A DNA stretch of 64,000 bases from a bacterium (GTDB lineage: Bacteria > UBA8248 > JACPRG01 > G963555815): positions 320,001 to 384,000 of the forward strand of contig CBDHDG010000006.1 in NCBI GenBank assembly GCA_965261595.1, in the 5' to 3' direction. The position numbers and the translations under genes were made by a program. Below the pieces are notes generated by a model. It saw only the letters and a list, made by a program, of their open reading frames with translations, made no database searches and had not been told where the DNA came from. How positions within the stretch are numbered: the stretch's first letter is position 1; every line of letters begins with the position of its first letter. Below are positions 7,624-63,870 of this stretch, piece by piece.

Positions 7624-7881
7624 ATCTATCGAGGGATGATTCCCGGCTCGGCGAGGGTCCCCGTCCGACCTTCAACGTGATGCGGTCAGGCCAGCCCCCG
7701 GCGCCAAAATCAGGGCGCCATCGGGGCTTTGCGGTGCATGACTCTTCGGAGGTTTTCCCGTCCAATTGGCCCATCCGGCATCAGGCCGTTCAGCGCCCTC
7801 TTATCCACGCATTTGTCTGAAAAACAATACATTCCGCCGGTCGAGGCTGTCAAGGAGGATTTTCCCGCCGGTATGGGCGCG

Positions 7882-9528
7882 TCACAACGCCCCGCGCTTG
7901 AAGCGGGCCCGGACCCGCGCCGTCAGATCCTTGACCTCGGGAACGCCGAATCCGAGGATGAGACCGGTGTAAACCAGAGCCGAGCCCCCGATGACGCCGA
8001 TCAACACGCCCCCCTTCCAAAGTCCCGAGGTCTCCGGCCCGGCCGGCCAGAGCCATTGCAAGAGCAAGGCCGCCGCCCCCATCAGAACCGCCGCGGCGAG
8101 CGAGCGGCGATTCGACGAATTCCAGAAAAACCCTTTGAGCGGAAAAGACGCCCTCAGGAAGTGCACATGCACGCCGACCAGGACGAATTGCCCCAGGACG
8201 TGGGCGATGGGCACGCCGACGTAGCCGAACATCCTCGTGAACAGGAAGTTCCCCGCGATAATGGTCCCCTGCGCCGCGCACAGGCCGATGACGACGACGC
8301 GCGTCTTTCCCAAGGCGTGGTGGGTGTTGGTGAAAAGCATCTTATAGCCCAGGGGAACGAACGCGATGAAGTAGAGGACAAGCGCCCAGGACGTCCGGAA
8401 GGCGGCCTCCGGATCGAAGGCCCCTCGCTGAAGCAGCGTCCCGACGGCCAGACCGCTGACGGCCATCATCCCGATCCCGATGGGGAGAAGGAGCAAAACG
8501 AGCGCGCGCGAGGCCTTGAAGACGAGCGCTTTGAGGTCATCCAGGCGGTCGCCCACCTTCATCCGAACCAGCTCGGGAAAGACCACATTCGGCAGGGGAA
8601 TCGTAAACAGGGCGGAGGCCGCCAGGAAAAGGCGCTCGGCATAGGCCATGGCCGAAAGGCTTCCCGGGGCCAACAGGGAGGCCACGAACCGGGTGGACAA
8701 GGTCTGGCCCTGCGTGAAGGCCGAGCTGATGAAGAACTGAGAGACGCGCCGGAGGGTCTCCCTGAGCTCCGGCCCTCGGAAATCGAGAACGGGCCGGTAG
8801 CGATAGCCCTCCCTCCACAACACCAACCCCAGGGCCGTGAGAAAGGCGGCCGGTCCGGCGAGATTCCCCAGGATCCAGGCATCCAGACCGAGCGACGGCG
8901 CAAGGATCCCCACGCAAAGGACCACGCCCAGCGTCGGCAGGAGACTCAAGGCCGCCGGCAGGACAAACAGATTGAGGGCGTTGAGCGAGATGATCAGCAC
9001 GCCGGAGAGGGTGTGGGAGAGGATGGTGAAGATCAAGAAGCGAAGCATTCGGACGCTTGCCGCCCAGGTGGCCTCATCGAACCCCGCCCCCACGACGCGG
9101 ACGATCCAGGGCGCCAAAACGAATCCCAACGCGGCCAAAACCGCGCAGAGCAAAAGGATGAAATTCAGCAGGCTGTTGAGCAACCGCCAGGCGGCCTCGG
9201 CCGAGACCTCGCGCCGGACCCGGACGAAGATCGGCAGGAAAACGCTCGGCAGGGGACCGCTCTGAAGGAGGTGGGCCAGGACAAGCGGAATCGACTGGGC
9301 CAGAAAGAAGGCGTCGGTGAGCCGCCCCGCCCCGAAGTGATAGGCGATCAGCCCGTTGGAGACGAGTCCGACGGCCGCCCCCAGGCCGGAGATGAACGTC
9401 ACCCCGCCGAAGGAGCGCGCCGCGCGCCAGGGGCGTTCGCCGCCGCCCCCCCCCTCCCCGGCCGCCCCCCCGGTCCCGGACGCTCCGGTCCCGGACGCGA
9501 AAGGATGTTCATCCGGCCGATCCGTCAC
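7882..9528 (-). CDS. MurJ/MviN-like MOP flippase
   Basis: AYHFGAGRLTDAFFLAQSIP, YAERL, VFPEL and QRGAFD motifs; many TM helices; GTG start overlaps the upstream stop. Confidence 0.85.
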   Translation of the reverse strand: MTDRPDEHPFASGTGASGTGGAAGEGGGGGERPWRAARSFGGVTFISGLGAAVGLVSNGLIAYHFGAGRLTDAFFLAQSIPLVLAHLLQSGPLPSVFLPIFVRVRREVSAEAAWRLLNSLLNFILLLCAVLAALGFVLAPWIVRVVGAGFDEATWAASVRMLRFLIFTILSHTLSGVLIISLNALNLFVLPAALSLLPTLGVVLCVGILAPSLGLDAWILGNLAGPAAFLTALGLVLWREGYRYRPVLDFRGPELRETLRRVSQFFISSAFTQGQTLSTRFVASLLAPGSLSAMAYAERLFLAASALFTIPLPNVVFPELVRMKVGDRLDDLKALVFKASRALVLLLLPIGIGMMAVSGLAVGTLLQRGAFDPEAAFRTSWALVLYFIAFVPLGYKMLFTNTHHALGKTRVVVIGLCAAQGTIIAGNFLFTRMFGYVGVPIAHVLGQFVLVGVHVHFLRASFPLKGFFWNSSNRRSLAAAVLMGAAALLLQWLWPAGPETSGLWKGGVLIGVIGGSALVYTGLILGFGVPEVKDLTARVRARFKRGAL

Positions 9529-32541: not shown

Positions 32542-33036
32542 GGCAATCCATTCAGGGCATTCCTGTAGATTATACCACGGTGTGCGGGGCGTCCCGCGAA
32601 AACGGGTGACTTCCGCATCATCGGCCGGGGAGATTGCACCCCGCGGCGATCCGTTCCATATTTTCACCGTGATTCATCACCCGATTGACAACCCGTTCCG
32701 GTTCCGCATACGATCTGAAACAGATTCCTTCTTGCGCCCGGCATCGGATTCAATCGCGATTATATACTTGACCCCTCGACCCACTCATGTAGTAAAATGG
32801 ACCCAAAAGGCCGAACCACAAGATGTAGGGGTTGACATTCTCCCTATTTCTGCTCGAAACTGAAGCTCCTTAGATCACTAGACTTTGGTGGCAGAGATTG
32901 CACACAGGTTCTATATCCTGCAAAACGGAGCATGAACCAAATCAATCATTCTGGCATCGAAAGTACAAGATCATAATGTCAGGCCGACGGCCAATTGGTG
33001 TCGCTTGTCCTTTTCTGGGGCCTGGAGAAAACAAGA

Positions 33037-33539
33037 TGAAAAAGTGTCCCCTGTATTTTAACATCCGAGAACACGTCTTTGGCAAAGGGTTCCTCGCAGA
33101 GGTCGTAGCAAAGGGCAAGGCCTTCACCGAAGAAGAAAAAGAAGGTGTTTGGTTTTACGGTGTGGAGCCAGGTGGTCTAGCTGCGTGCGGGAAGACCAGG
33201 ACAGAGGCCTATTGGGAATTCAAAAAAACATTCATTTCAATAATCTTTGATTTCGCTGAAAAGGAGCAGAACTATGACCAATTCAGCGAACGGGTACAGC
33301 GTTTCTTCCACGAGGTAAGCCGCCCCACGCTTGAAGAATGGGAAGAGGCGGTGTGTGATGTAAGAAGCGGAAAAGTGAAGGAAGATACCCTAACGAGGGA
33401 GCCTGCGGAATCCCCTGCTCAGGTCGATGTAAGTCTAATCGTTGCCATGAATCAAGGGAGGCTCCTAGAAAATTCACTATTGCCAGAAAAGAACAAGATT
33501 GAACAGACAGAACCTAAAATCAACCTCTTGGCGGCTTAG
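33037..33539 (+). CDS. Hypothetical protein with HicB-like segment
   Basis: EGVWFYGVEPGGLAACGKTRTEAYWEFKKTF resembles the HicB pG..xG.T.eEA motif. Confidence 0.55.
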
Positions 33540-33544
33540 GGCGT

Positions 33545-33865
33545 TTGGGCTCTTTTGGCCAAGTTAAGCTCAAAAATGTCTTTGACATGCTCAAGAAGTG
33601 TGCCCAAGGACACGAGATTGAAACGACTGACCACTATTACTGCGTAAAATTTGGGGAGAAATCCTTCCCCTCATTGCCAAAAGGGGAGCACGGCTCAAAA
33701 TCACAAGCCGATATCAAGAGGGGTAAGATCAAGCAGATGGTCAATCATTTGGAGATTGACCCAAAATGTGAGAATAAAGAAATCCCATCCCTGAATCTAA
33801 AAGCCAAGCCCATAAAAAAGGCAACGTTACACTTGACATACCCAGTGATGGGTGCTAAGCTATGA
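33545..33865 (+). CDS. HicA-like small basic protein; C-terminus replaced by IS1595 insertion
   Basis: Helix, H, beta strands, LP..H, DIKRGKIKQM pattern; adjacent to the HicB-like gene. Confidence 0.5.
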   Translation: MGSFGQVKLKNVFDMLKKCAQGHEIETTDHYYCVKFGEKSFPSLPKGEHGSKSQADIKRGKIKQMVNHLEIDPKCENKEIPSLNLKAKPIKKATLHLTYPVMGAKL

Positions 33866-35481
33866 TTAAGTTGGCACCATTTACTGGGGAAAAGCGCATG
33901 ACGCCCGTGACGGTTAACCTCGACGCTCTTATACCCCGTGGCGACTTTGTCTCGGAGGCGATCCAATCCGGCGGAAGTCCACGACAAACAATCAGCATTT
34001 CAGACTTTGGCAGCAATGGTTTCTTCCAAAACTCACTTAGGAAGCCGGACTTTCAGCGCGAAACGACGCACTGGGCGCCAGCGGCAGTATACGATTTGGT
34101 CCGCGCATTCCTTCAGGGCGATCTAATCCCAGCCGTCATTCTTTGGGAGCGAGGAGACGAAGTTTTTGTTATTGATGGCGCGCACCGGCTGAGTGCTCTC
34201 ATTGGGTGGATTCGCGATGACTATGGCGACGGCACTAATTCTAACGCGATCTTTGGGAGCGGGCTGACTGACGAACAGCGAAAGATTGCCGACCGCACGA
34301 GAAAGGTCATTAATAAGGAAATTGGACCATACGCTGAGTTTATTGGTCTGATAGGGCAGTCGGTCCCCAATCCTGTAAAGGCAAGGTATCTAAGCGCAAT
34401 TGGAAAGAATTCTGTTCTTATTCAATGGGTTAAGGCAGAGAGTACCGAAGCCGCGGAGAATTCATTCTTTAAGATCAATCAAGCAGCACAGCCTATTGAT
34501 CCCGTCGAGCGGCGTATCCTTCAAAGTCGCACATCCCCGAACGCGATAGCGTCTAGATGCATAGCCAGGGGCGGTAGAGGCCACAAATATTGGGCTAAAT
34601 TCGATCTGTGCCGACAGGAACAGGTAGAGGAACTAGGGGCTCAGATTTGGGATATATTGTATAAGCCAGCTCATGCCCCGCCCATTACATCCACCGACCT
34701 GCCGATAGCCGGGCAGGGCTATAACGCTCTGCCGTTTGTGTTCAATCTGGTGAGTCTCACGAATGGATTGAAGATTCCTAATAGCCTAGCGAACAAGACC
34801 ATGGAAAATCCTCTTCCGCCTGATGAAACTGGAGAGGAAACCATTGAATACCTAGAGAATGTTAAAAAACGCCTTATTTTGGTTAGCACAAACCATGCAG
34901 GGTCTCTAGGGCTCCACCCTCTTATTTACTATTACGCGAGATCAGGTCTCTTTCTTTCAAACGCCTTCCTCGCATCTCTGGAGTTTTCCAAAAAACTAGA
35001 TAAAGAAAATAGAAAAGATGACTTTACGCGCGTTCGGAATCGATTAGAAGAGTATCTTCATGCAAACAAGTTGTTTGTATCTCTCACGATTAGTAGGTTG
35101 GGAAGTGGTGGGCGCAGCCTGAATCGTATCGCCAACCTCTACTGGTCCATCTTTGAGGGAATGCACCAAAGGCTGTCCGATGCCGATCTATTCGAGGCGT
35201 TTATCGAACGAGATGATTTTGTCCACTTGAAGCAGTCAAGCATACCGCCGCCGACGTTCGACAGGGAGGTCAGTAAGCGTGGGGCATCCCGTGAATCAAA
35301 GTCCGCAACATTCATTCGAACGGCGCTAGATAATCCCATTAGATGTGACATTTGCAAAGCGCCTATCCACAGTAATTCTGTGACATTTGATCATGTGATT
35401 CGAACAAAGGGCGGGGGAGACAACCAAAGCGATAATCTACGGCTTTCGCACCCTTACTGTAACTCGGGATTTAAGGGCTAG
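33862..35481 (+). CDS. DUF262 (ParB/Srx-like) + HNH endonuclease, GmrSD-like
   Basis: PDFQRE..W, IDGAHRL and FFKIN motifs; C-terminal CxxC..DHV..GG..N..H..CN. Confidence 0.8.
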   Translation: MIKLAPFTGEKRMTPVTVNLDALIPRGDFVSEAIQSGGSPRQTISISDFGSNGFFQNSLRKPDFQRETTHWAPAAVYDLVRAFLQGDLIPAVILWERGDEVFVIDGAHRLSALIGWIRDDYGDGTNSNAIFGSGLTDEQRKIADRTRKVINKEIGPYAEFIGLIGQSVPNPVKARYLSAIGKNSVLIQWVKAESTEAAENSFFKINQAAQPIDPVERRILQSRTSPNAIASRCIARGGRGHKYWAKFDLCRQEQVEELGAQIWDILYKPAHAPPITSTDLPIAGQGYNALPFVFNLVSLTNGLKIPNSLANKTMENPLPPDETGEETIEYLENVKKRLILVSTNHAGSLGLHPLIYYYARSGLFLSNAFLASLEFSKKLDKENRKDDFTRVRNRLEEYLHANKLFVSLTISRLGSGGRSLNRIANLYWSIFEGMHQRLSDADLFEAFIERDDFVHLKQSSIPPPTFDREVSKRGASRESKSATFIRTALDNPIRCDICKAPIHSNSVTFDHVIRTKGGGDNQSDNLRLSHPYCNSGFKG

Positions 35482-35619
35482 AGATATGCTCTTGAATGCC
35501 CGGTCAAAAGCCTTTGGGTCTTTATCCACCTCGACTTCTTCGGCGGTTTCGAGAAAACGCCTATATTGCTCAGGATCGTCAGGCTTAAAAGCTGTCTTAT
35601 GTGTGGGCTTCTGCATCAT
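35437..35619 (-). CDS. Small IS1595-associated hypothetical protein
   Basis: PEQYRRFLETAEEVEVDKDPKAFDRAFKSI; co-oriented and downstream of the transposase. Confidence 0.5.
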   Translation of the reverse strand: MMQKPTHKTAFKPDDPEQYRRFLETAEEVEVDKDPKAFDRAFKSISLALKSRVTVRVRKP

Positions 35620-35740
35620 GGGTGAACCATACCTCACAACCAGTCAGTCCTCAACGATGAAGAAAAACTCTAGTTGCGGGTCGGGCAACTGCAACCGAGC
35701 CCATACCCGCCAGCGCCGGGTTTTCTCGTTTAGCGATTGC

Positions 35741-36676
35741 TTACGAGTGAGCCGTTTCGTAGGTGAGTCGTTTGCCTTTGAACCCTTTCAGAGCGACCGC
35801 GGCGCGGCCAACGTCGTCTACGCCCAACCCTTCTCGGTTGCTGTAGCGGAAGTCGAACTCGGCCAGATAGCGATGCAGGTGTGCCTCGCTAACGTGGAAG
35901 TAGCATCCGGTGATACCGCGCTTGAGGATGCTGAAATAGTTCTCGACGGTGTTGGTGTGTGCATTCCCGCGCACGTACTCATTGGAGCTGTGGTTGACGC
36001 TATTGTGCTCGAAGTCTCGCCCCATTTGGCGGTACTGACCAGCTTCGTCAGTGTACAGATTGGACTTGCTGTCAATCTGGGCCACCAACACCGGCCGCAG
36101 ATTTCCGGCGGTGACGCTCGCAACGCGTATCGAACGAACGCGTCCATTTCTCTCCACCAGAGACAGCACGGCTACCTTGCCAACAGAGCCACGGCCAGTG
36201 CGCAGTTTCTTGTTGGCATGCTTGTTCTTCTCCTTGCCGCCGATATAGGTTTCGTCGACCTCGACCGCCCTGCCTTCGCCGCCCAGGGGATCAAGCGATC
36301 CGTCTTTCATGGCTTCGCGGATGCGATGGGCAAGGAACCACGCAGTCTTCATGCTGCACTGGAGCATCCGTTGAATTTGGCGGGTTGCGATGCCCTTCTT
36401 GCTGGCGCACATCAGATGGATCACTTGCAGCCACAAGTGCAGCGGCAGGTGCGAAGACTCGAAGATAGTCCCGATCCGAATGGTGAACGGTTTCTGGCAG
36501 GCGTAACACTTGTGCAAACCCTTGCGGGTGGTCTTGCCATTCAGCTTGCGGACATGATCTTCAGTAGCGCCACAGAACGGACAGTAAGGGCCATCTGACC
36601 AAAGGGAATTCTCGACGTATGCGAAGGCCGCATCCTCATTGTGGAAATGCGAGGCAGATAGAACAGAGTGGGCCAT
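35741..36676 (-). CDS. IS1595-family transposase (Zn ribbon, HTH, ISXO2-like DDE)
   Basis: CPFC..CYAC, KTAW..HRIR, EVDETYIGG, TDE, HTNTVEN and YLAEFDFRY motifs. Confidence 0.95.
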   Translation of the reverse strand: MAHSVLSASHFHNEDAAFAYVENSLWSDGPYCPFCGATEDHVRKLNGKTTRKGLHKCYACQKPFTIRIGTIFESSHLPLHLWLQVIHLMCASKKGIATRQIQRMLQCSMKTAWFLAHRIREAMKDGSLDPLGGEGRAVEVDETYIGGKEKNKHANKKLRTGRGSVGKVAVLSLVERNGRVRSIRVASVTAGNLRPVLVAQIDSKSNLYTDEAGQYRQMGRDFEHNSVNHSSNEYVRGNAHTNTVENYFSILKRGITGCYFHVSEAHLHRYLAEFDFRYSNREGLGVDDVGRAAVALKGFKGKRLTYETAHS

Positions 36677-37143
36677 GAGAGAATACCTCCTGACCCCAAT
36701 ATGGGGGATCGTGCGTGGTATGTCAAGTGTAACGTTGCCATAAAAAAACACTTGCCACAAAAAAGGCCACGGCGCCGGGGTCAGCCCCGATGATCCCTCG
36801 AAAAACCTCCCCCCTACATCTTGTGGTCAACCGAGACGCGGACGCGATCTACATGTTGTGGTCGTCTGTGTCAAGTATATAACTCCGGTATTCAATCATC
36901 ACCTGGCGGTCGGGTTGCGGGTTCAGATACGTCCTCTTCTTGATTGCCGCGAGAGGATTTTCCGGATAGAAGGCGGTCTAAATTCCAATCATGTCAGAGA
37001 TGGGGATTCCATCCGCCTTCGGGGGAGGGGAGGGGGAAGAATCCCCGCGCGTTTTTTTCCGTCGTTTTGTTTGATGTTTTCCAATCGGGATTATGTAGTA
37101 AGGGATCTATCCCGTCTGTTTTTCCTGCAGTAGGAGTATATGT

Positions 37144-49893: not shown

Positions 49894-50307
49894 ATGGAAA
49901 ACACGTTCGCCATCATCAAGCCCGACGCCGTGGGCCGCAAGCTGACCGGCCGGATCCTCGACCGGATCGAAGCGGCCGGCTTCCGGATTCGCGCCCTGCG
50001 CCTCCTGCGCCTGACCCGGGCCGAGGCCGAGGGGTTTTACGCCGTCCACCGGGAACGGCCCTTTTTCGCCGGCCTGACCGAGTTCATGTCTTCCGGGCCC
50101 TGCGCGGCGATGGTCCTGGAGAAGGAGGACGCCATCGCGGCCTGGCGCCGTCTCATGGGGGCCACGAACCCGGAGGAGGCCGAGGAGGGCACCCTTCGAA
50201 AGGAATTCGCCGAGAACATCGAGCGCAACTGCGTCCACGGAAGCGATGCCCCCGAGACAGCGGCGTTCGAAACCGCGTACTTCTTCAGGGCCCTGGACAA
50301 GGTGTAA
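49894..50307 (+). CDS. ndk: Nucleoside diphosphate kinase
   Basis: IIKPDA, MGATNP and NCVHGSD motifs. Confidence 0.97.
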
Positions 50308-50656
50308 GGGAAGCCCTGGGGGGAGGGGGGGGGAAGAGTCCGTCCTCAAGCTCCGGGGCGGATGGACCGCCTCGTCGAACCGCCCAAGCGTAAATCGACT
50401 TCCGCGCCCGCCCGGGAGTCTCCATGACTGAAAGTGGATTGGAACGCCGCACAGGGGTTCCACCGGGCGAAATCCAACGGCCGGAATGACTTCCTTCCCG
50501 CCCGCCTTGAATCTCAAAACCCTTTGATTTAGAGTGTCCTCGCAGGCATGAGCGCGGGTCGGCCGGAAGCGGACCGGGCCCGACCGCACGGAGAACGGGC
50601 GGCTCGCCGGGTCCTCCCGGCGATTTCTCATTTCAACCTTTTATCGGGTTTAGCGA

Positions 50657-51340
50657 ATGCGCGCGGTCATTCTGGCGGGCGGGCTGGGAACGAGGCTCCG
50701 GCCTCTCACGTTCTCGATCCCCAAGCCCATCCTCCCCGTGGGGGAAAAGCCGATCCTCGAGATCATCCTCGACCGGCTCAAGGGATTCGGCTTCCATGAA
50801 TTCATCCTCTCCGTCGGATACCGGGCCGAGCTCATCGAAACCTACTTCGGCGACGGCGCGCACTTCGACACGAAAATCCATTACCTGAAAGAAGAAAAGC
50901 CCACGGGCACGGCCGGCGCTCTCCACTTGCTCCACCAGGGCTTCGACATCGCCCGGGACGAGACTTTCCTCCTCATGAACGGCGACGTCCTGACCGAGCT
51001 CGACTTCCACCGCTTCATCGACGCCCACAAGTCCGAAAGGTTCGAGCTCAGCGTGGGCGTCAAGGAGATCGAGCGCCAGCTCCCTTACGGCGTCCTCGAG
51101 GTCGAAGGCCGCCTCGTCCGGCGGATCGTTGAAAAACCCGTCTCGCGGTACCTCATCTCGGCCGGCATCTACCTGCTTCAGGGAAGCGTCCTCCCCCTGG
51201 TCCCGGCCGACACCTACTTCACCCTGCCGGACCTCGTGGAACGCCTGGTGGGGGAGAACCGGCGCGTCGGGAGCCATCTCATCCGGGAATTCTGGCTGGC
51301 CGTGGAGCACCCGGATGACATGGAAGAGGCCCGGTCCTGA
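50657..51340 (+). CDS. Sugar-phosphate nucleotidyltransferase
   Basis: ILAGGLGTRLRPLT..PKP, GTAGAL, NGD and EKP motifs. Confidence 0.9.
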   Translation: MRAVILAGGLGTRLRPLTFSIPKPILPVGEKPILEIILDRLKGFGFHEFILSVGYRAELIETYFGDGAHFDTKIHYLKEEKPTGTAGALHLLHQGFDIARDETFLLMNGDVLTELDFHRFIDAHKSERFELSVGVKEIERQLPYGVLEVEGRLVRRIVEKPVSRYLISAGIYLLQGSVLPLVPADTYFTLPDLVERLVGENRRVGSHLIREFWLAVEHPDDMEEARS

Positions 51341-51357
51341 ATCGAGGCGGGCTCGGG

Positions 51358-52056
51358 ATGAGTCTCTCGCTGCGAAAACTTTCCATCATCATTCCCGTTT
51401 ACAACGAGCGAGACACCATCGAGGAGGTCATCCGCCGGGTCCTGGCCGTGGACATCGGCCTTGAGCGCGAGATCATCATCCTGGACGGCGACTCCACCGA
51501 CGGGACCCGGGAGTTCCTGGAGACCCTCCGGGAGGAACAGGTTCGGGTGATCTTCGAAAAGGATCGGGGCGGCAAAGGCGCGGCCGTCCGGCGCGGCTTC
51601 GGCGAGGCCACGGGCGACATCGTCATCATCCAGGACGCCGACCTGGAATTGGATCCGTCCGAATATCCGGACCTTCTGGCCCCCATCCTCCGGGGCGACG
51701 CGAAAGCCGTTTACGGGAGCCGGTTCACCAACGGAAGGGGCGCGACGTCCCTCGGAAGCTACATCGGCAATCTGACCATCACCTGGGCGACCAACCTCCT
51801 CTTCTTCGCCCGGCTCACCGACATCGCGACCGGCTACAAGGTCATCCGCAGGGATGTCCTCGACACCCTGAGCCTTTCGTGCAACGGCTTCGATTTCGAC
51901 GCCGAAATCACCAACAAGCTCCTCAAGGCGGGCGTCCGCATTCACGAGGTCCCCGTCTCCTATGCGCCCCGCGACCACCAGGCCGGAAAGAAGCTTCACT
52001 GGTCCGAAGGTTTGCGGGTTCTGCTGGCGATCCTGAGAAACCGCTTCACCGACTGA
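51358..52056 (+). CDS. GT2, polyprenol-phosphate glycosyltransferase (DPM-like)
   Basis: IPVYNE, DGDSTDGT, GKGAA, QDADLE, YGSRF and TDIATGYK motifs. Confidence 0.88.
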   Translation: MSLSLRKLSIIIPVYNERDTIEEVIRRVLAVDIGLEREIIILDGDSTDGTREFLETLREEQVRVIFEKDRGGKGAAVRRGFGEATGDIVIIQDADLELDPSEYPDLLAPILRGDAKAVYGSRFTNGRGATSLGSYIGNLTITWATNLLFFARLTDIATGYKVIRRDVLDTLSLSCNGFDFDAEITNKLLKAGVRIHEVPVSYAPRDHQAGKKLHWSEGLRVLLAILRNRFTD

Positions 52057-52064
52057 CCGACGCC

Positions 52065-54083
52065 ATGCCCCCCCCCCCCCCTCCTCCCCCCCGGGACAGC
52101 CGATCAGCGCGACTCCGGACGCGGATCTTCACCTCCGTCCTCCGATTCAACGACCGGGTGGATGAATGGATCCGCCGGAACCCGGCCGCGCGCCTCCTGG
52201 GACCCGCCGGACCGTTGCGGCGATGGAGGGAAGGAGAAAGGCGCGGCCCCCGCCCATCGGGGCCGGCGGCCGACAGTGACGGCTGGATCGACGGCAGTCT
52301 CTTCATTACAGCGATCCGGAGGTTTTTGGCGGCGCTGGGCGGTCGAATCGCCGCCCAGGCGCGGGAAGGGATCTTCGGGCGCTGGCGGGACGCCGTGGCC
52401 CGCTCCCGGACGACCGCCCCGCAGCGAACCGCCGCGGCCGTTCTCTTATCGACCATCGGCGCGAACGCGGTTTTCCTTCTTGCCTCCCAAACGCTCCTGG
52501 GAGCGGAAGGCCTGGCGATTCGGGCGCTCCTGCTCACCGGTGCGGGAGCGGCGACGGTCCTGGAAGAGGGCGGGTTCGCCCGCTGGTGGCGGGCTTGGCG
52601 GCCGGTCCAATGGCTCCGGAATTCGGGAAGGAAGAAGGAGGCAACCCCCGGAACCGCCGCTCCGGCCGCTCCGGAGGGGTCTCCCGGCTTCCTCCCCGCG
52701 ATGGCGGCGGGGGTGGTTGCGGGGTTTTTCTGGTGGCTTTCGCCCGGCGCCGCATTTCTGGGACTGGCCGCGGCGGGGTTGGCGGCGGGCCTGAAGCGAT
52801 TCTGCGCCCCGGAGGATTGGGAATTTTTGCGGGGTCTTTTCATCGCTTCCCTGGCCCTTCGCCTGGCCCTCCTGGCCGTTGCGTACGCGTGGGCGATCAC
52901 GCACGTGTGGACCTACTCGAATTCGAATGTCCTGGACTTTCACTTCAGGACCCCGATGGTGTTCGGCGACGGGGGATACTTCACGGCGCGCGCCTGGGCG
53001 CTCAGCCAGATCTGGAGGGGCGCTGAGGTCTGGCCGCGGGCCCTGTATGAAATTCGCCAAACTTACGGGGCCACGTCATTTCTTTACGTCCCCACGGTCT
53101 TCTTCTATCTTTTCGGCCCCGAGGGATTGATCGCGGTCCGGCTCATCAATCCCTTCTTCGGCGCATGCCTCCCTTTGATGGTGTACGGGTTTACCCGCGA
53201 CCTGTTCGGCCGGCCGGCCGGCCGGATCGCCTCGATCACGGTCGCTCTCTTCCCTTCGCTGATCCTCTGGAGCCTGGACCTGCTCAAGGACACCACGTTC
53301 ATCGTGATGACCCTGGCGACCGTCTGGGGGCTGGTTCGATTCCAACGGCGAGAGAGATTCGGCGCCTGGCTTACCGCCGCCGTCATGGCGGCGCTTGCCT
53401 TCACCGTGCGCAATAACCTGGGCATTCTTCTCCTCATCTTGGTCGGACTCGGCTGGATACCCGCCATGTGGCGGCGGTGCGTGGGGCGGAGCCCGGCTCG
53501 GGCGCTGCTCGCCCTTTTGCTTCTGGCGGCGGTTTTCCTCTCCCCCCCCGTGCGCGGTGTGATGGGGGTTCGGCTCTACTGGCTCTTTTCCATCCAGCGG
53601 GGAGCGGCCGAAACGGCCGGAAGGTCCACCTATCCGCTGTGGAGCCGAAGACTCTACCGGCACATGACGCCCGAGACCTTCCTGAAGGATGTCAAACCCT
53701 TGGAAGTCCTCCGCGCGTTCGGACTCGGGCAACGCCATTTCTGGCTCGAACCCACCCCCTGGGGGCCGCGCTCCCGGGGAGAGCGGCTGGCCATCCCCCA
53801 GATGATGCTTTGGTACGTGATCCTCCTGGCGAGCCTCGCCGGGATATGGCGTCTGCGGCGAAACCCCTCGGAGCTCTTCGTCCTGCTTGTGTTCCTCGGG
53901 GCGACGAGCGCAAGCATCGGGATGACGGGAGGGAACGTCGGGACGATTTTCCGCCACCGGGATGTCCTGACGCCGGTCCTGATTGCCGCGGCCGGCGGAG
54001 GACTGGCCGGCTGGCTCCGCCGGACGCGGGACCCGGCCCATCAGGGCGGCCGGGCCGATCGCGGGTCGGCGGGCGAGGCCTGA
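52065..54083 (+). CDS. Multi-pass membrane protein, GT-C-like
   Basis: GDGGYF, VRLIN, PSLILWSLDLLKD and NVGTIFRHR motifs; many TM segments. Confidence 0.7.
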   Translation: MPPPPPPPPRDSRSARLRTRIFTSVLRFNDRVDEWIRRNPAARLLGPAGPLRRWREGERRGPRPSGPAADSDGWIDGSLFITAIRRFLAALGGRIAAQAREGIFGRWRDAVARSRTTAPQRTAAAVLLSTIGANAVFLLASQTLLGAEGLAIRALLLTGAGAATVLEEGGFARWWRAWRPVQWLRNSGRKKEATPGTAAPAAPEGSPGFLPAMAAGVVAGFFWWLSPGAAFLGLAAAGLAAGLKRFCAPEDWEFLRGLFIASLALRLALLAVAYAWAITHVWTYSNSNVLDFHFRTPMVFGDGGYFTARAWALSQIWRGAEVWPRALYEIRQTYGATSFLYVPTVFFYLFGPEGLIAVRLINPFFGACLPLMVYGFTRDLFGRPAGRIASITVALFPSLILWSLDLLKDTTFIVMTLATVWGLVRFQRRERFGAWLTAAVMAALAFTVRNNLGILLLILVGLGWIPAMWRRCVGRSPARALLALLLLAAVFLSPPVRGVMGVRLYWLFSIQRGAAETAGRSTYPLWSRRLYRHMTPETFLKDVKPLEVLRAFGLGQRHFWLEPTPWGPRSRGERLAIPQMMLWYVILLASLAGIWRLRRNPSELFVLLVFLGATSASIGMTGGNVGTIFRHRDVLTPVLIAAAGGGLAGWLRRTRDPAHQGGRADRGSAGEA

Positions 54084-54088
54084 GACCC

Positions 54089-55354
54089 GTGGCGAATCAT
54101 CCCCCTCCTCCCCCCCTCCCCCCAACCAACGGCGGGCGGCGGCGTCCACCCAGGATCCTCTTCCTCTCCTACAACGGCGTCCAGGAGCCCCTGACGCAAT
54201 CCCAGGCGCTGCCCTACCTCCGCGGGCTCGCCCGCCGGGGCGCCCGGGTTCATCTGCTCACCTTCGAGAAAGAAACGCCGGGGGGAAACCCGCCGGGCAA
54301 GGACCAGCGCGCGGCTTTGGCCCGCGACGGTTTGCGTTGGACCTGGCTCAGGTACCATAAGCGTCCCGCCTTCGTTTCCACACTCTTCGACGTCGCTCTC
54401 GGGATGGTCATCTCTTTTTGGCTCACCCTGCGGCATCGCGTGGACATCATCGAAGCCCGGGGGACCATCCCCGCGGGAATCGGATTTCCGGTGGCCCGGA
54501 TCCTTCGGCGGCGATTCCTCTTCAACGTCCGGGGGCTGCTCGCCGAGGAAAACGCGGACGCGGGCCGCTGGAGGCTGGATCACCCCGCGGTCCGATGGGT
54601 GAACCGGCTCGAGAAACGATGGATTTCCTCCGCGGACGCGGTCATCGTGCTCACCGAGGCATTGAAACGTCTCCTGGCGGGACCGGATTACCTGCCGCGG
54701 CCAAGGGCCGAAGGGGTGACGGTGATCCCGTGCTGTGCGGACACCGACCGGTTTCTGCCGGCCCGCGAGACGAGAGGGCCGAAGACCGCCTTCCCCACGT
54801 TCGTCTATGCGGGATCGCTCGGCGGGTACTATCTGGTCCGGGAGATGTTCGACTTTTTCGCCGCCGCCCTGGCCCGCTGGCCCCGGGCGCGTCTGCGGAT
54901 CCTGGCCAACGGGTATGAAGACGGGGCGCGCGAAGCCGTGCGCGAGACCGGCCTGGATCCCGGGCGGGTGGAGATCGAGACGGTCGCCCATGAGGATGTC
55001 CCCGGACAGCTGGCCGGCGCCGACGCGGGCCTGATCTTCGCCCGCCCGGCCTTTGCCCGGATCGGCATGTCTCCGACCAAACTGGCCGAGTATCTGGCCT
55101 GCGGTCTGCCGGTCGTCACAACGCCTGGAATCGGGGACACCGAGAGCGTTGTCCAGGAAGACCGGACCGGGGTGGTGGTTCGGGGTCTCGACCGGGCCGG
55201 GTACGAGGGGGTCTGCGAGGCGCTCTCGACGCTTTTCGAGGAAGGCGAGACCCTGCGGACCCGGTGCCGGCAATCGGCGGTTCGTCGATTCGGGTTGGAG
55301 AGAGGGCTTGCGGGATATCGTGAAGTCCTGGGATTTCTCGGGTTCCGACTGTGA
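54089..55354 (+). CDS. Glycosyltransferase family 4
   Basis: SQALPYL, VIPCCAD, YAGSLG and SPTKLAEYLACGLPVV motifs. Confidence 0.88.
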   Translation: MANHPPPPPLPPTNGGRRRPPRILFLSYNGVQEPLTQSQALPYLRGLARRGARVHLLTFEKETPGGNPPGKDQRAALARDGLRWTWLRYHKRPAFVSTLFDVALGMVISFWLTLRHRVDIIEARGTIPAGIGFPVARILRRRFLFNVRGLLAEENADAGRWRLDHPAVRWVNRLEKRWISSADAVIVLTEALKRLLAGPDYLPRPRAEGVTVIPCCADTDRFLPARETRGPKTAFPTFVYAGSLGGYYLVREMFDFFAAALARWPRARLRILANGYEDGAREAVRETGLDPGRVEIETVAHEDVPGQLAGADAGLIFARPAFARIGMSPTKLAEYLACGLPVVTTPGIGDTESVVQEDRTGVVVRGLDRAGYEGVCEALSTLFEEGETLRTRCRQSAVRRFGLERGLAGYREVLGFLGFRL

Positions 55355-55540
55355 CTTTCCCAAGGGGGTTGCGTATATAGATTTTTACATCGTTAGACGT
55401 TGGGGTGGTTGGTAAAATACGCGCTGTTCGGAGCGTCGTCCCGAGACCCGGCCGGCCGGGCCGGCGGACCGCCCCCGTCGGGGGATCGAGCAAGTTGAGT
55501 CATCGGGTTTCGCCGGAACCTCCCGGGCGCGAAAATTGGA

Positions 55541-57290
55541 GTGGGGAAAATCGCTGAGACGCCGAAAAGATTCGGCACCCATGTGCTGTACACCGCGATT
55601 TCCATCGGGACGCTCCTGCTGTTCCTGCCGGCGACCCGGGCGTGGTTCATCGGCCGGGGGATGCGGTGGTTTTTCATTTTCCTTCTGTCCCTCTTCCTGA
55701 GCCTGCTCCTGACGCCGGCCGTCCGCCGCTTGGCCCGCCGCCTTGAAGTGCTGGACGCGCCTTCATCCCGAAAGGCCCACGAGAGAAGCACCCCGCTGCT
55801 GGGCGGAATGGCTATTTTTCTCTCCTTCGCCATCGCCGTCATCTACAACCTGTATTTCTCGTTTCAACTCAAGGGCGTCGCCATCGGCGCCACGCTCGTC
55901 ATGGTTTTTGGCCTGGCGGACGACATCTGGGACCTGCCGGCGCTGATGAAGCTCATGATTCAGCTTTGCGCGGTGGGGGTCATGATCGTTTACGGGGTCA
56001 GCGGAAATTTCATGCCGACCTCCTTTCTGGGGGACGGCTTCGAGGTGCCCCTGACGATTATCTGGATGATCGGCATCACCAACGCCGTGAACTTTCTGGA
56101 CGGGATGGACGGTTTGGCGGCGGGGCTGGGCCTCATCGCATCCACGTTCATCGGTCTTGTGGCCCTGCAAACCGGCCAGCGGTTCCTGCTTTTTCTCGCC
56201 GTGGCGTTGGCGGGCAGTTGCCTGGGATTTCCCCCCTACAACTTCCATCCCCGAAAACCCGCGACCATCTTTCTCGGGGACGCGGGCAGCCAGTTCATCG
56301 GATTCACCCTGGCGGGGATGGCCATCATGGGAAATTGGGCGATCGGCGATCCGGTGAAGGCCTACAGCATGCCCATTCTGATCCTGGCCATCCCAATCTT
56401 CGACATGACCTACATCACTTCCACGCGCATTTATTGGGGGCGGATTCGCAGCTTCAGGGAGTGGCTTGAATACACCGGAAGAGACCACCTGCACCACCGC
56501 CTGGAAAACCTCGGCCTCTCCAAGAAGCAAACGGTTCTGTTCATCTACTTCCTGGCAGCCGCGTTGGGCGTCAGCGCGGTCGTCCTGAAAAACGGCCGGA
56601 CATTGGACGCCGTGGTCCTGTTGTTTCAGGCGGCGATGCTGCTGTTGATCACCGCCATGCTGATGGTCCGGGGCGCCCGCCTGGTTCAGGACGCGGGACG
56701 GGAGATCCGCCGAACCCTGACCAACATCCTCGGCTTCAGCGAAGTCATGCTGGGGGAGGAGCCGGAATCGCCGAGCGCCCGTCGGGAGTACGCGGAAATC
56801 ATCCGGCGCAAGAAGATCCGTTTGGAGAGCGAGCTCAACCGCCTTTCGGGCGCCCTCCCGCCGGAAGCCCCCGCCGGGTCGGAAGGGGACGCCGAATCCG
56901 CCGATGCGGAAGCGGAGTCCCGAACGATCCTGGTCGTCGATGACGACCTGGATTTCCGCCGGTTGATCGAGATCATCCTGGGCAAACGTAACCGGATCAT
57001 CACGGCCTCCGACGGCGCCTCAGCCATCTCCTGGGCCCTCGACGCCCGGCCCGATCTGATCCTGATGGACCTCTTCATGCCCCGCCTGGACGGCTTCGAA
57101 ACCGTCCGGATCCTTCAGGAAAACCCCGATACGCGGCAAGATTCCCGTGCTGGCCCTGAGCGCGGAGATGTCTCGGGTCAACGCCGAACGGGCCTTGGAA
57201 GCCGGATGTGTTGGCTATCTGGGGAAACCGTTCGACGCCCGGACCCTTCGCCGCGCGGTGACACGCGCCCTCCGCATCGCCGCCGACTGA
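55541..57290 (+). CDS. WecA/TagO (MraY-family) phosphoglycosyl transferase fused to a HisKA-like segment and a receiver domain; frameshift near 57137
   Basis: TPLLGG, GLADD, NAVNFLDGMDGL, FLGDAG, DHLHHRL; then REIRRTLTNILGFSE; ILVVDDD, LILMDLFMPRLDG; alternate frame KIPVLALSA..GYLGKPF. Confidence 0.85.
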
Positions 57291-57346
57291 ACCGCGCTCT
57301 TCCTTAAGGGGCTCCCCGCCTCAGGGAAGAAGTCCGCCTCGGGTTC

Positions 57347-58276
57347 TCACCCGGATCCCTCGCCGGGCCGGCCGGCCGCCTGCGGCCTTGCGCACGCCCC
57401 CGGTTTCGCCAGCCGCTCGGCGTTCCGGTAGGCGATCTTCTCGGCCACGGACCGGGGCAGCTCCTTCAGCCAGGCCCGGTGTCCGTCCAGCGTCCGCGGC
57501 AGAAACGCCCACCGGTCGTCCGCCCAAGTGTCCGTCCCCACCAGGAAGCGATCCGGGTGGCGCAGGAACAGCTTGCGCCAATCCGGCTTCAGCCCGTCGT
57601 GAGAGACGTCCCACCGAAGGGCCAGCTCGGCCCAAAGATTCGCGTGGCGGTCCAGGAGCTGTCCGATGGTCTCCGGCCCCGCCGTCATCCCCGCGTGCGC
57701 CCAGAGGACGCAGACGCCGCGCTTCATCGCCGCGATCTCCGCAACGGCCGCCGCGTCCACGTGGGCGTGGAGGAAGAGATTTTCCCGCGCCGCCAGATCG
57801 ACGATCCGTCGGAAGACCGGGGAGGCGGCGTCGCCCGCGCCCATGTGGAACTCCCCAATCCCCCGGTAGACGCCCCGCCCGGTCCGGATGCGTTCTTCGA
57901 GATAGGCCGGGATCTCCGGATCCCGAAACCACGTGGCCATGTCCGCCGGCGTCCTGTAAGGGCGCAGGACGGGGACGACGACATTCGGCGCCGCCCGGTG
58001 GAGCCTGAGCGTGCCGTCGTCCGGCGTGCTGGAGACGAAGGCCCGGATCACGCCGCCCCGCTTCAGGATCTTCAACGCCCCGGCCGGCGGGAGCCGATCC
58101 CAGGCGTCCCGGCCGTAATGGATATGGGCATCGAAGATGGGGAGCCGCTGGGCAGCCGCCGGCCCGGCGGACAAAAAAGGGACAACCGACAGACCGGCCA
58201 GGATCGCGACCCGGCCGGAAACGAGCAAGCCGGACCGCCCGAACCGCATATGGAAGAACGTGGTGATGGGCTTCAT
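57347..58276 (-). CDS. Amidohydrolase family protein, probable signal peptide
   Basis: FDAHIHY, GIGEFH, HAH, WAHAG and GTDTW motifs. Confidence 0.8.
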   Translation of the reverse strand: MKPITTFFHMRFGRSGLLVSGRVAILAGLSVVPFLSAGPAAAQRLPIFDAHIHYGRDAWDRLPPAGALKILKRGGVIRAFVSSTPDDGTLRLHRAAPNVVVPVLRPYRTPADMATWFRDPEIPAYLEERIRTGRGVYRGIGEFHMGAGDAASPVFRRIVDLAARENLFLHAHVDAAAVAEIAAMKRGVCVLWAHAGMTAGPETIGQLLDRHANLWAELALRWDVSHDGLKPDWRKLFLRHPDRFLVGTDTWADDRWAFLPRTLDGHRAWLKELPRSVAEKIAYRNAERLAKPGACARPQAAGRPGEGSG

Positions 58277-63184: not shown

Positions 63185-63870
63185 ATGGAACAAGTGCTGC
63201 CAACCGTTTGCCAAGAATGCTGGAACGAATGCGGTGTGCTGGTGCATGTCGAGGACGACAAGATCAAGGAGATCGTCGGCAACCCCGCGCATCCGGTGAC
63301 CAAAGGGTATATCTGCAATAAAGGATCAAGATTCACCGAAGTTGTGTACCACAAAGACCGACTGCTTCATCCCCTCAAACGGGTTGGCGCCCGCGGCGAA
63401 GGAAAATGGCAGCAGATATCGTGGGATGAGGCGTTGGACTACGCCGCCGATGCCATCCAGAAGATCCGGCGGACCCACGGCCCTCAGTCGTTCGCCATGT
63501 TTGATCACCACGTCTTTCGCGACCCCATCTGGACACTGTTCGAGCGCTTCGTCGGCAATAACAATGTGATCGGCTGCCTGGATCGATGCGACGGTTCGGC
63601 GGGCAAGGAATCGACAACGGCGACTGGTGCTGGATCCTCACGCCGAGAGGAAAGGTGAAGATGGTCGCCACCCTCACCGACCGGATGCATCCAAAGGTGG
63701 TGAGTGCACAGCATGGCTGGTGGTTTCCAGAGAAAAACACGACAAATCATGGCGTGAACGAATCAAACATTAACCTCCTAACCGACAGAGAAACGGAGCA
63801 TGCCGATCCAGTCATCGGGGGTCATACCTTCAAAGGCCTTCTCTGCACCATTGAGAAGATCGCGGATTGA
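63185..63870 (+). pseudogene. Molybdopterin oxidoreductase (MopB family), internally deleted
   Basis: CQECWNEC..ICNKG..RLLHPLKR..ISWDEA joined out of frame near 63595 to the C-terminal TPRG..HGWWFPE..NINLL domain. Confidence 0.8.

Follow-up and report, generated by a model that had tools for sequence, protein, structure and literature searches.

A WecA/TagO-type phosphoglycosyl transferase (PGT) is joined in a single reading frame to a helix pair that resembles the DHp domain of histidine kinases but has lost the phospho-accepting histidine, and this is followed by a receiver domain. Comparison of the sequences indicates that the fusion is old and conserved, though rare. The architecture is apparently undescribed so far: the literature searched, which took in few subscription papers, gave no account of a receiver or a DHp domain joined to a polytopic PGT. 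The gene in the window (the whole stretch of 64 000 nucleotides analyzed) is most likely a decaying copy, its genome having a second gene of the WecA type; it is the wrong allele to study, and P0007 (locus L024) and P0004 are intact copies. For such intact relatives we propose that a separate kinase phosphorylates the receiver, which would dock on the pseudo-DHp and gate glycan initiation, a mechanism to which we give about an even chance.

Domain organization and predicted structure

The features of the gene are collected in Table 1. The Pfam Glycos_transf_4 match covers residues 112–264 with 123.7 bits against a cut-off of 27, and on profile, fold and motifs the domain is a predicted transferase of the polytopic PGT class (the PNPT or MraY–WecA superfamily). 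The GXXDD motif is that of bioRxiv 10.1101/2023.09.19.558431, and passages of PMC5222938 describe the role of the loop Asp pair and the HIHH-type motif. Narrower models stay below their cut-offs: TIGR02380 (ECA WecA) gives 135 bits for the window, 141 for P0004, 100 for P0007 and up to 152, all under 326, and the MraY model TIGR00445 gives 52 bits against 192. With the WecA/TagO PNPTs (PF00953) the fusion shares the common fold, the GXXDD, D-G-x-D-G and HIHH-type motifs and a setting among glycosyltransferase genes, but it has an extra N-terminal helix and the C-terminal signalling tail.

The HisKA match in the window ORF is weak (residues 380–430, E 0.003, 18 bits against a cut-off of 26.9). 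PF00512 also falls below the cut-off in P0004, P0005, P0012 and P0089, and lies above it in P0007 and P0009; the helix pair of P0007 aligns to solved DHp domains, the best being 7n0e (E 7e-5). The Pfam scan found no HATPase_c match in the window ORF. The first-pass annotation of this DNA had reported Arg at the phospho-His position and no HATPase domain, and both are seen. With neither a phospho-accepting His nor HATPase_c, the window product is not a hybrid histidine kinase. Residues 463–530 match positions 1–69 of the 111 in the Response_reg profile (E 9e-12), while positions 71–110 are found in the next frame at 57141–57287 (E 8e-6). The motifs quoted in that annotation are all present, the Ser and Lys of the receiver lying in the next frame.

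Table 1. Features of the fusion gene and the adjoining gene cluster, numbered from the first nucleotide of the window
Feature	Position	Strand	Remarks
Upstream glycan cluster, co-oriented	50657..55354	+	Nucleotidyltransferase, GT2, PMT_2-type membrane transferase, GT4; Pfam above cut-off; same order in L106
Fusion ORF as encoded	55541..57307	+	588 aa from a GTG at 55541; transferase, pseudo-DHp and cut receiver, then 56 residues out of frame
WecA/TagO-type polytopic phosphoglycosyl transferase domain (predicted), residues 1–375	55541..56665	+	Pfam PF00953, E 9e-36
GLADD (GXXDD motif), Asp127-Asp128	55919..55924	+	Asp in 120 and 123 of 125 aligned homologs
Pro170 in predicted membrane helix, private	56048..56050	+	No Pro listed at this column for 125 homologs; Leu in sister alleles
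NFLDGMDGL loop with Asp187, Asp190	56090..56116	+	Both Asp in 123 of 125 homologs
Pro231, private	56231..56233	+	Leu in 108, Phe in 14, Ile in 1 and Pro in none of 123 filled rows
DHLHHRL, HIHH-type sugar recognition motif	56483..56503	+	Each of three His in 123 of 125 homologs
His-less HisKA-like (pseudo-DHp) helix pair	56678..56848	+	PF00512, E 0.003 in window
Arg387 at phospho-His position	56699..56701	+	Register from alignment to solved DHp domains
Flexible linker, ~23 residues	56849..56917	+	pLDDT <50 in models of orthologs P0004 and P0007
Receiver, N-terminal part	56918..57136	+	Acidic pocket 56939–56947; phospho-Asp510 57068–57070
Inserted C, shifts frame	57137..57137	+	Absent in L104, L106; P0119 reads through
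Receiver, C-terminal part, out of frame	57138..57290	+	Ser 57159–61, Lys 57225–27, stop 57288–90

AlphaFold models of P0004 (pLDDT 90.7, pTM 0.83) and P0007 (pLDDT 88.6, pTM 0.81) agree on how the parts are connected. Both models are confident, and in each DHp helix 1 forms a single helix of ~50 residues with the last membrane helix, continuous over H347–397 in P0004 and H349–399 in P0007; from there the chain goes on through helix 2 and a disordered linker to a receiver fold. The last membrane helix is thus predicted to run on as DHp helix 1, ~10 residues above the His site. Foldseek matched the P0004 model to MraY (6oyh, E 5e-10) and DPAGT1 (5o5e), and also to receivers. Since the HLHH loop is cytoplasmic (PMC5222938) and is followed by two membrane helices, the tail should be cytoplasmic too, on the side of the active site; a hydropathy scan gave only 8–9 helices and was set aside for topology.

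Complex prediction for the P0004 receiver with the transferase–DHp dimer scored 0.32, versus 0.00 for the best of three controls. Of the solved pairs, 116 of 157 attain the mark used for such complexes, as do 2 of 215 mismatched ones; at ≤0.60 it is attained by only 18 of the 157 solved pairs and by both of these mismatches. Contact agreement between runs was ≥93% and partner pLDDT ≥77, for unphosphorylated chains with only the receiver scored, and no interface was returned, which counts against the docking mechanism. The score hints that the receiver may sit on the transferase–DHp dimer; it may also come from likeness to solved kinase–receiver pairs alone.

Conservation and origin of the fusion

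The homolog search passed 5540 of 7997 candidates, and among the best 120, which were listed, eight combine PF00953 with PF00072 and one combines PF00953 with a HATPase. Three more in-frame fusions came from a cluster look-up, making 11 in eight clusters, at 44–72% identity across the clusters compared. All five transferase motifs are kept in 11 of 11 (P0005 and P0381 lack their N-termini), as are the acidic pocket, Asp, Ser/Thr and Lys of the receiver, whose motifs were read in the 11 fused rows, three sister alleles and five other fusions. The phospho-His is absent from all 14 pseudo-DHp sequences read. Arg or Lys takes its place in clade A (window, P0004, P0380, P0005, P0381), and Tyr in clade B (P0007–P0012, P0400) as well as in P0089/P0397, the form with a HATPase. 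Within the helix pair, both clades conserve best the half of helix 1 that faces a response regulator (IRxS/TxTxILGF). None of the five DHp-REC fusions scanned has HATPase_c, P0089 being the only carrier; in P0089/P0397 the HATPase (E 8e-23) follows the pseudo-DHp at the spacing seen in the fusions. These two proteins, labelled Fidelibacterota, are WecA-type enzymes with a Tyr-for-His DHp and a HATPase, and are the closest match to a DivL-like pseudokinase.

How rare is the fusion? It was found in one of 51 genomes of the phylum, against 14 with the plain enzyme, and is represented once among the best 150 of the 50% library and once (L024) among the 80 GTDB loci listed; the loci listed from 40 relatives contain no fused form. 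A degenerate DNA pattern for the junction had no match in viral contigs and four in metagenome contigs, of which two are true (L104 and L106); the others, L105 (a PhoR/PhoB-like pair by eye) and L107 (no matching frame), arose by chance. Proteins near-identical to the window's are labelled Nitrospinota at NCBI.

On the transferase tree clades A and B each have support of 100/100, and B is sister to plain Nitrospinota enzymes (99/94). Two apparent joins, P0124 (DUF6079 with a partial transferase) and P0146 (DegT with a transferase), were excluded from the trees. A and B as one clade was rejected at p-AU 0.027, with 51 of 128 rows and in a test chosen after the tree was seen. The receivers of the two clades are not mutual best matches (ranks 28–162 of 256 and 16–114 of 266) and do not group, and hence receiver similarity does not support a single origin. 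The similarity of the pseudo-DHp is mixed, with the other clade near the top and interleaved with true HisKA and with P0089 the best match of clade B, against a background of the window genome and collected proteins, some of which had been chosen with the same profile. Clade A, clade B and P0089 have identical spacing at the junction, and this fits a single ancient joining to a kinase and subsequent losses. From their sequences A and B may be two convergent fusions.

Other tails are found at the same C-terminus. A search for longer relatives passed 557 of 7998 candidates, and the best 120 of these, which were listed, include in the same subfamily at least three receiver-only, at least five PilZ, at least two GGDEF and at least 13 HAD-like tails, the last under the Pfam cut-off; a further search added one more PilZ-type tail and two distant WecA–receiver fusions. 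The receiver-only tails are P0147–P0149, on a short helix, and those of the distant WecA group P0310 and P0366. RxxxR and DxSxxG are kept in all six PilZ tails read, and both GGDEF tails read have a broken active-site motif and an intact RxxD site. Each tail type is a separate clade on the transferase tree, so the C-terminus appears to have taken up signal-input modules repeatedly.

Several of these proteins deserve mention in their own right. The WecA-type enzymes with a C-terminal PilZ domain and both motifs are P0128, P0130, P0131, P0133, P0142 and P0240. L063 and L076 (Poribacteria), P0125 and P0127 carry a degenerate GGDEF with RxxD and are candidate c-di-GMP receptors. The HAD-like tails (P0129, P0132, P0134–P0141, P0143–P0145) form a well-kept clade of 13 clusters, with a DFDGT motif in the seven read. 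By eye we also noted an O-antigen-ligase-like membrane domain (P0309, P0353), an HD-like tail (P0273) and an HNH-like tail (P0241).

Probable decay of the window allele and its locus

The window carries a single extra C at 57137 when compared with L104 (97% identical) and L106 (92%), after which the frame reads 56 unrelated residues to a stop at 57305–57307. The receiver Ser and Lys are untranslated in frame because of this shift. The product is without the last two receiver strands, the Ser and the Lys, and is not a canonical receiver protein. Thus where the first-pass annotation described a transferase, a pseudo-DHp and a complete receiver, the architecture in one frame stands, but the receiver is incomplete, being cut at 57137. 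Its suspicion of a frameshift near this position was correct, and at 57130–57140, where it proposed a check of the reads, all spanning contigs have the insertion with no gaps. Contigs from six of six non-RNA runs (X3, X4, X7, X9, X11, X14; six studies, of which that of X3 may be the source of the window assembly) cover the stretch with no gaps and contain the insertion, so the C belongs to the allele. Sequencing error is ruled out, the base being in every contig compared and sister alleles being without it, and programmed frameshifting was rejected, with no slippery run seen. Position 57137 is also crossed without gaps by two contigs from RNA libraries of one study (X15, X16); the RNA-library contigs cover 56701–57400 only, in pieces, and carry no evidence on transcription.

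The window allele is not alone in being broken. Its two Leu-to-Pro changes are found in none of 123 aligned homologs. The species-level 90% cluster has 25 members, and none of the 15 listed is a whole in-frame fusion, five of these being short or partial and uninformative. P0390, P0395 and P0396 have the window frameshift. P0393 and P0394, which have their longest contig in common, are separate pieces with a break near residue 290, where a read error is possible. In a separate cluster, P0119 reads through the receiver and then into unrelated sequence at its end. The sister alleles are broken at sites other than 57137: in L106 two bases are inserted after 56157 and a stop stands at Trp266, and L104 has stops at codons 299, 391 and 461.

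Between the window and L106, dN/dS by the method of Nei and Gojobori, over few codons, is 0.09 for the pseudo-DHp (2 N, 7 S), 0.28 for the N-terminal part of the receiver and 0.41 for the transferase, with 0.06–0.39 for four intact-looking neighbors and ndk. The PMT-type gene gives 0.98 and has two stops in the L106 copy; against L104, dN/dS is 0.70 overall. The low values in the tail therefore point to purifying selection on it until recently. The breaks in the transferase and the decay of the PMT-type gene indicate that a pathway is decaying and not the tail alone, and we take the sequences to record a long period of purifying selection, after which the pathway was lost recently and independently. 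A normal switch role is excluded for the window product.

The genome has two further PF00953 genes besides the fusion. An MraY-like gene (L003, named by eye) is separate from the fusion. The second WecA-type gene, L001 (G000:C7:1208210-1211647; also L014–L020), encodes ~610 aa with a C-terminal extension; similar proteins have PF13727, and its neighbor is asparagine-synthase-like by eye. Genes of the L001 type occur in all six same-family genomes, and the window subfamily was matched in none of the six.

The fusion gene is the last of a co-oriented glycan cluster in both the window and L106. A promoter scan of 50200–57500 gave one site against 0.6 expected, and none before the fusion gene. The PMT_2-type gene of L106 has its stops at window-equivalent 52561 and 53191, and the window copy is open. 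Elsewhere in the window, 33001–37000 has a GC content of 0.47–0.55 against ~0.65 and is possibly an acquired segment; 18-base stretches at 57038–57055 and 57720–57737 are matched by foreign contigs in opposite orientation, suggesting a short inverted repeat; and two short ORFs in 63185–63870 resemble by eye the start and end of a molybdopterin oxidoreductase, possibly a deleted remnant.

Proposed control of glycan initiation in the intact relatives

Initiating transferases commit a shared, limited lipid carrier. Post-translational control of this step has been shown for the monotopic enzymes EpsZ and CapM (PMC12802240). For the polytopic superfamily of MraY, WecA and DPAGT1, itself a drug target, none was found in the literature searched. 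In Myxococcus xanthus EpsW~P stimulates the initiating PGT EpsZ post-translationally (passages of PMC12802240), so that there too receiver phosphorylation controls an initiating phosphoglycosyl transferase. However EpsZ belongs to the monotopic PGTs and has an unrelated fold; EpsW stands alone, its kinase (DifE) is known, and no DHp is involved. The EpsW model scores 62 bits on the fusion against a cut-off of 200, and the same paper mentions receiver fusions only for small monoPGTs. DivL of Caulobacter has Tyr for His, is without kinase or phosphatase activity and binds DivK~P (passages of PMC4211667). It shares the Tyr-for-His DHp with clade B and P0089, but it binds DivK~P in trans, has PAS and CA domains and controls CckA, whereas the fusion carries its receiver on the same chain, has a CA domain only in P0089 and has an enzyme as its upstream domain. 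REC-BcsA-like GT2 enzymes have N-terminal receivers, and HATPase-less HisKA proteins keep their His (PMC5847659, in part); the likeness lies in a receiver on a glycosyltransferase and in a DHp without an ATPase domain, and the passages of that paper on receiver–enzyme fusions do not include a polytopic PGT.

Having no His and no ATPase domain, the fusion protein is unable to phosphorylate itself. The phosphatase motif of DHp domains is E/D-x-x-T/N, and here the site reads E-x-x-R, K-x-x-S or K-x-x-K. With self-phosphorylation and the phosphatase motif both gone, an intact receiver must be served in trans. In the mechanism we propose, a kinase encoded elsewhere would phosphorylate the receiver. 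The helix pair, probably a dimer, would act like DivL as a dead kinase on which the receiver docks depending on its phosphorylation state, and the continuous helix would pass this change on to the enzyme. In this way the predicted transfer of a sugar-1-phosphate, probably that of a HexNAc, to the lipid carrier would be gated on or off. The transferase and receiver motifs kept in every in-frame fusion argue for this, as do the loss of the His throughout, the continuous helix of both models, the low dN/dS of the tail, the PilZ, RxxD-GGDEF and receiver-only tails taken by the same C-terminus and the precedents of EpsW~P/EpsZ and DivL/DivK~P. A phosphorylation switch of glycan initiation had already been suggested in the first-pass annotation; it is plausible for the family given EpsW~P and EpsZ, but impossible for the window allele, and for the pseudo-DHp, seen there as a dimerization element, docking of the receiver is at least as likely a role. 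Against our mechanism, no kinase gene is adjacent in the window or found among the ATG ORFs of L024, the L024 locus lies outside a glycan cluster, the fusion is rare and dispensable with no whole copy among the cluster members listed, and the family may be two convergent fusions. More tentatively, and with odds clearly under even, the subfamily could be a signal-controlled gate on surface-glycan initiation, with its extra last membrane helix a socket that took up different signal modules in separate lineages, and the fusion protein a self-contained DivL-like sensor that reads the phosphorylation of its own receiver and signals back along the membrane helix to the active site.

The order of membrane domain, DHp and receiver is also that of a sensor kinase, and the signal could flow outwards. 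The transferase would then be the sensor of a degenerate hybrid kinase, reporting lipid-carrier or nucleotide-sugar status through the helix to a pseudo-DHp that either teams up with a genuine kinase or presents the receiver as a sink for phosphate. DHp pairing is known for RetS and GacS, and RetS chains are among the best solved matches to the P0007 helix pair; P0089/P0397 keep a HATPase behind the same pseudo-DHp at the same spacing. Even so we consider this unlikely, with the His lost throughout, the phosphatase site altered, the catalytic motifs fully kept and sister tails (PilZ, RxxD-GGDEF) that are typical inputs, not outputs. A slightly less probable reading is that the receiver binds the cytoplasmic loops or drives dimerization in the manner of EpsW, with the pseudo-DHp only a dimerizing stalk. 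EpsW~P is proposed to stabilize a dimer (passages of PMC12802240), and receivers do occur on a short helix (P0147–P0149) and in the distant WecA group, but a bare stalk would have no need of the RR-facing half of helix 1, the best kept part, though this is partly dimer core too.

It is improbable that the tail is a passenger, a kinase remnant fused once or twice, tolerated, uncoupled and now being lost. The rare and patchy distribution, independent inactivation in at least three alleles (window, L104, L106) and plain relatives sister to clade B would suit it. However the receiver motifs are kept across 44–72% identity, dN/dS is low in the tail, and the breaks strike the transferase as often as the tail while the PMT-type gene of L106 decays too. 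An artefact is barely credible, whether a sequencing error, a misassembly or a recent deletion that brought wecA and a kinase gene together. Nothing was found in its favor, and it is refuted by single contigs in six runs from six studies and by homologs at 44–48% identity with the same junction spacing. Misassembly, a recent deletion and a lack of independent homologs were the grounds on which the fusion might have fallen in the first-pass annotation; with in-frame homologs down to 44% identity it is genuine.

That a receiver, PilZ and GGDEF are all naturally fused by way of one helix speaks for an allosteric site in the polytopic fold, and such fusions offer single-protein constructs for testing it. 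A motif scan of the window genome gave 17 H-box ORFs and 35 receiver ORFs, the nearest ~12 kb past the gene. At L024, the ATG ORFs of which include no glycan genes, the clade B fusion follows a nucleosidase-like gene and overlaps a convergent gene for a single-domain receiver (7640–8068 on the minus strand), the overlap with the 3′ end of the fused gene being ~80 bases.
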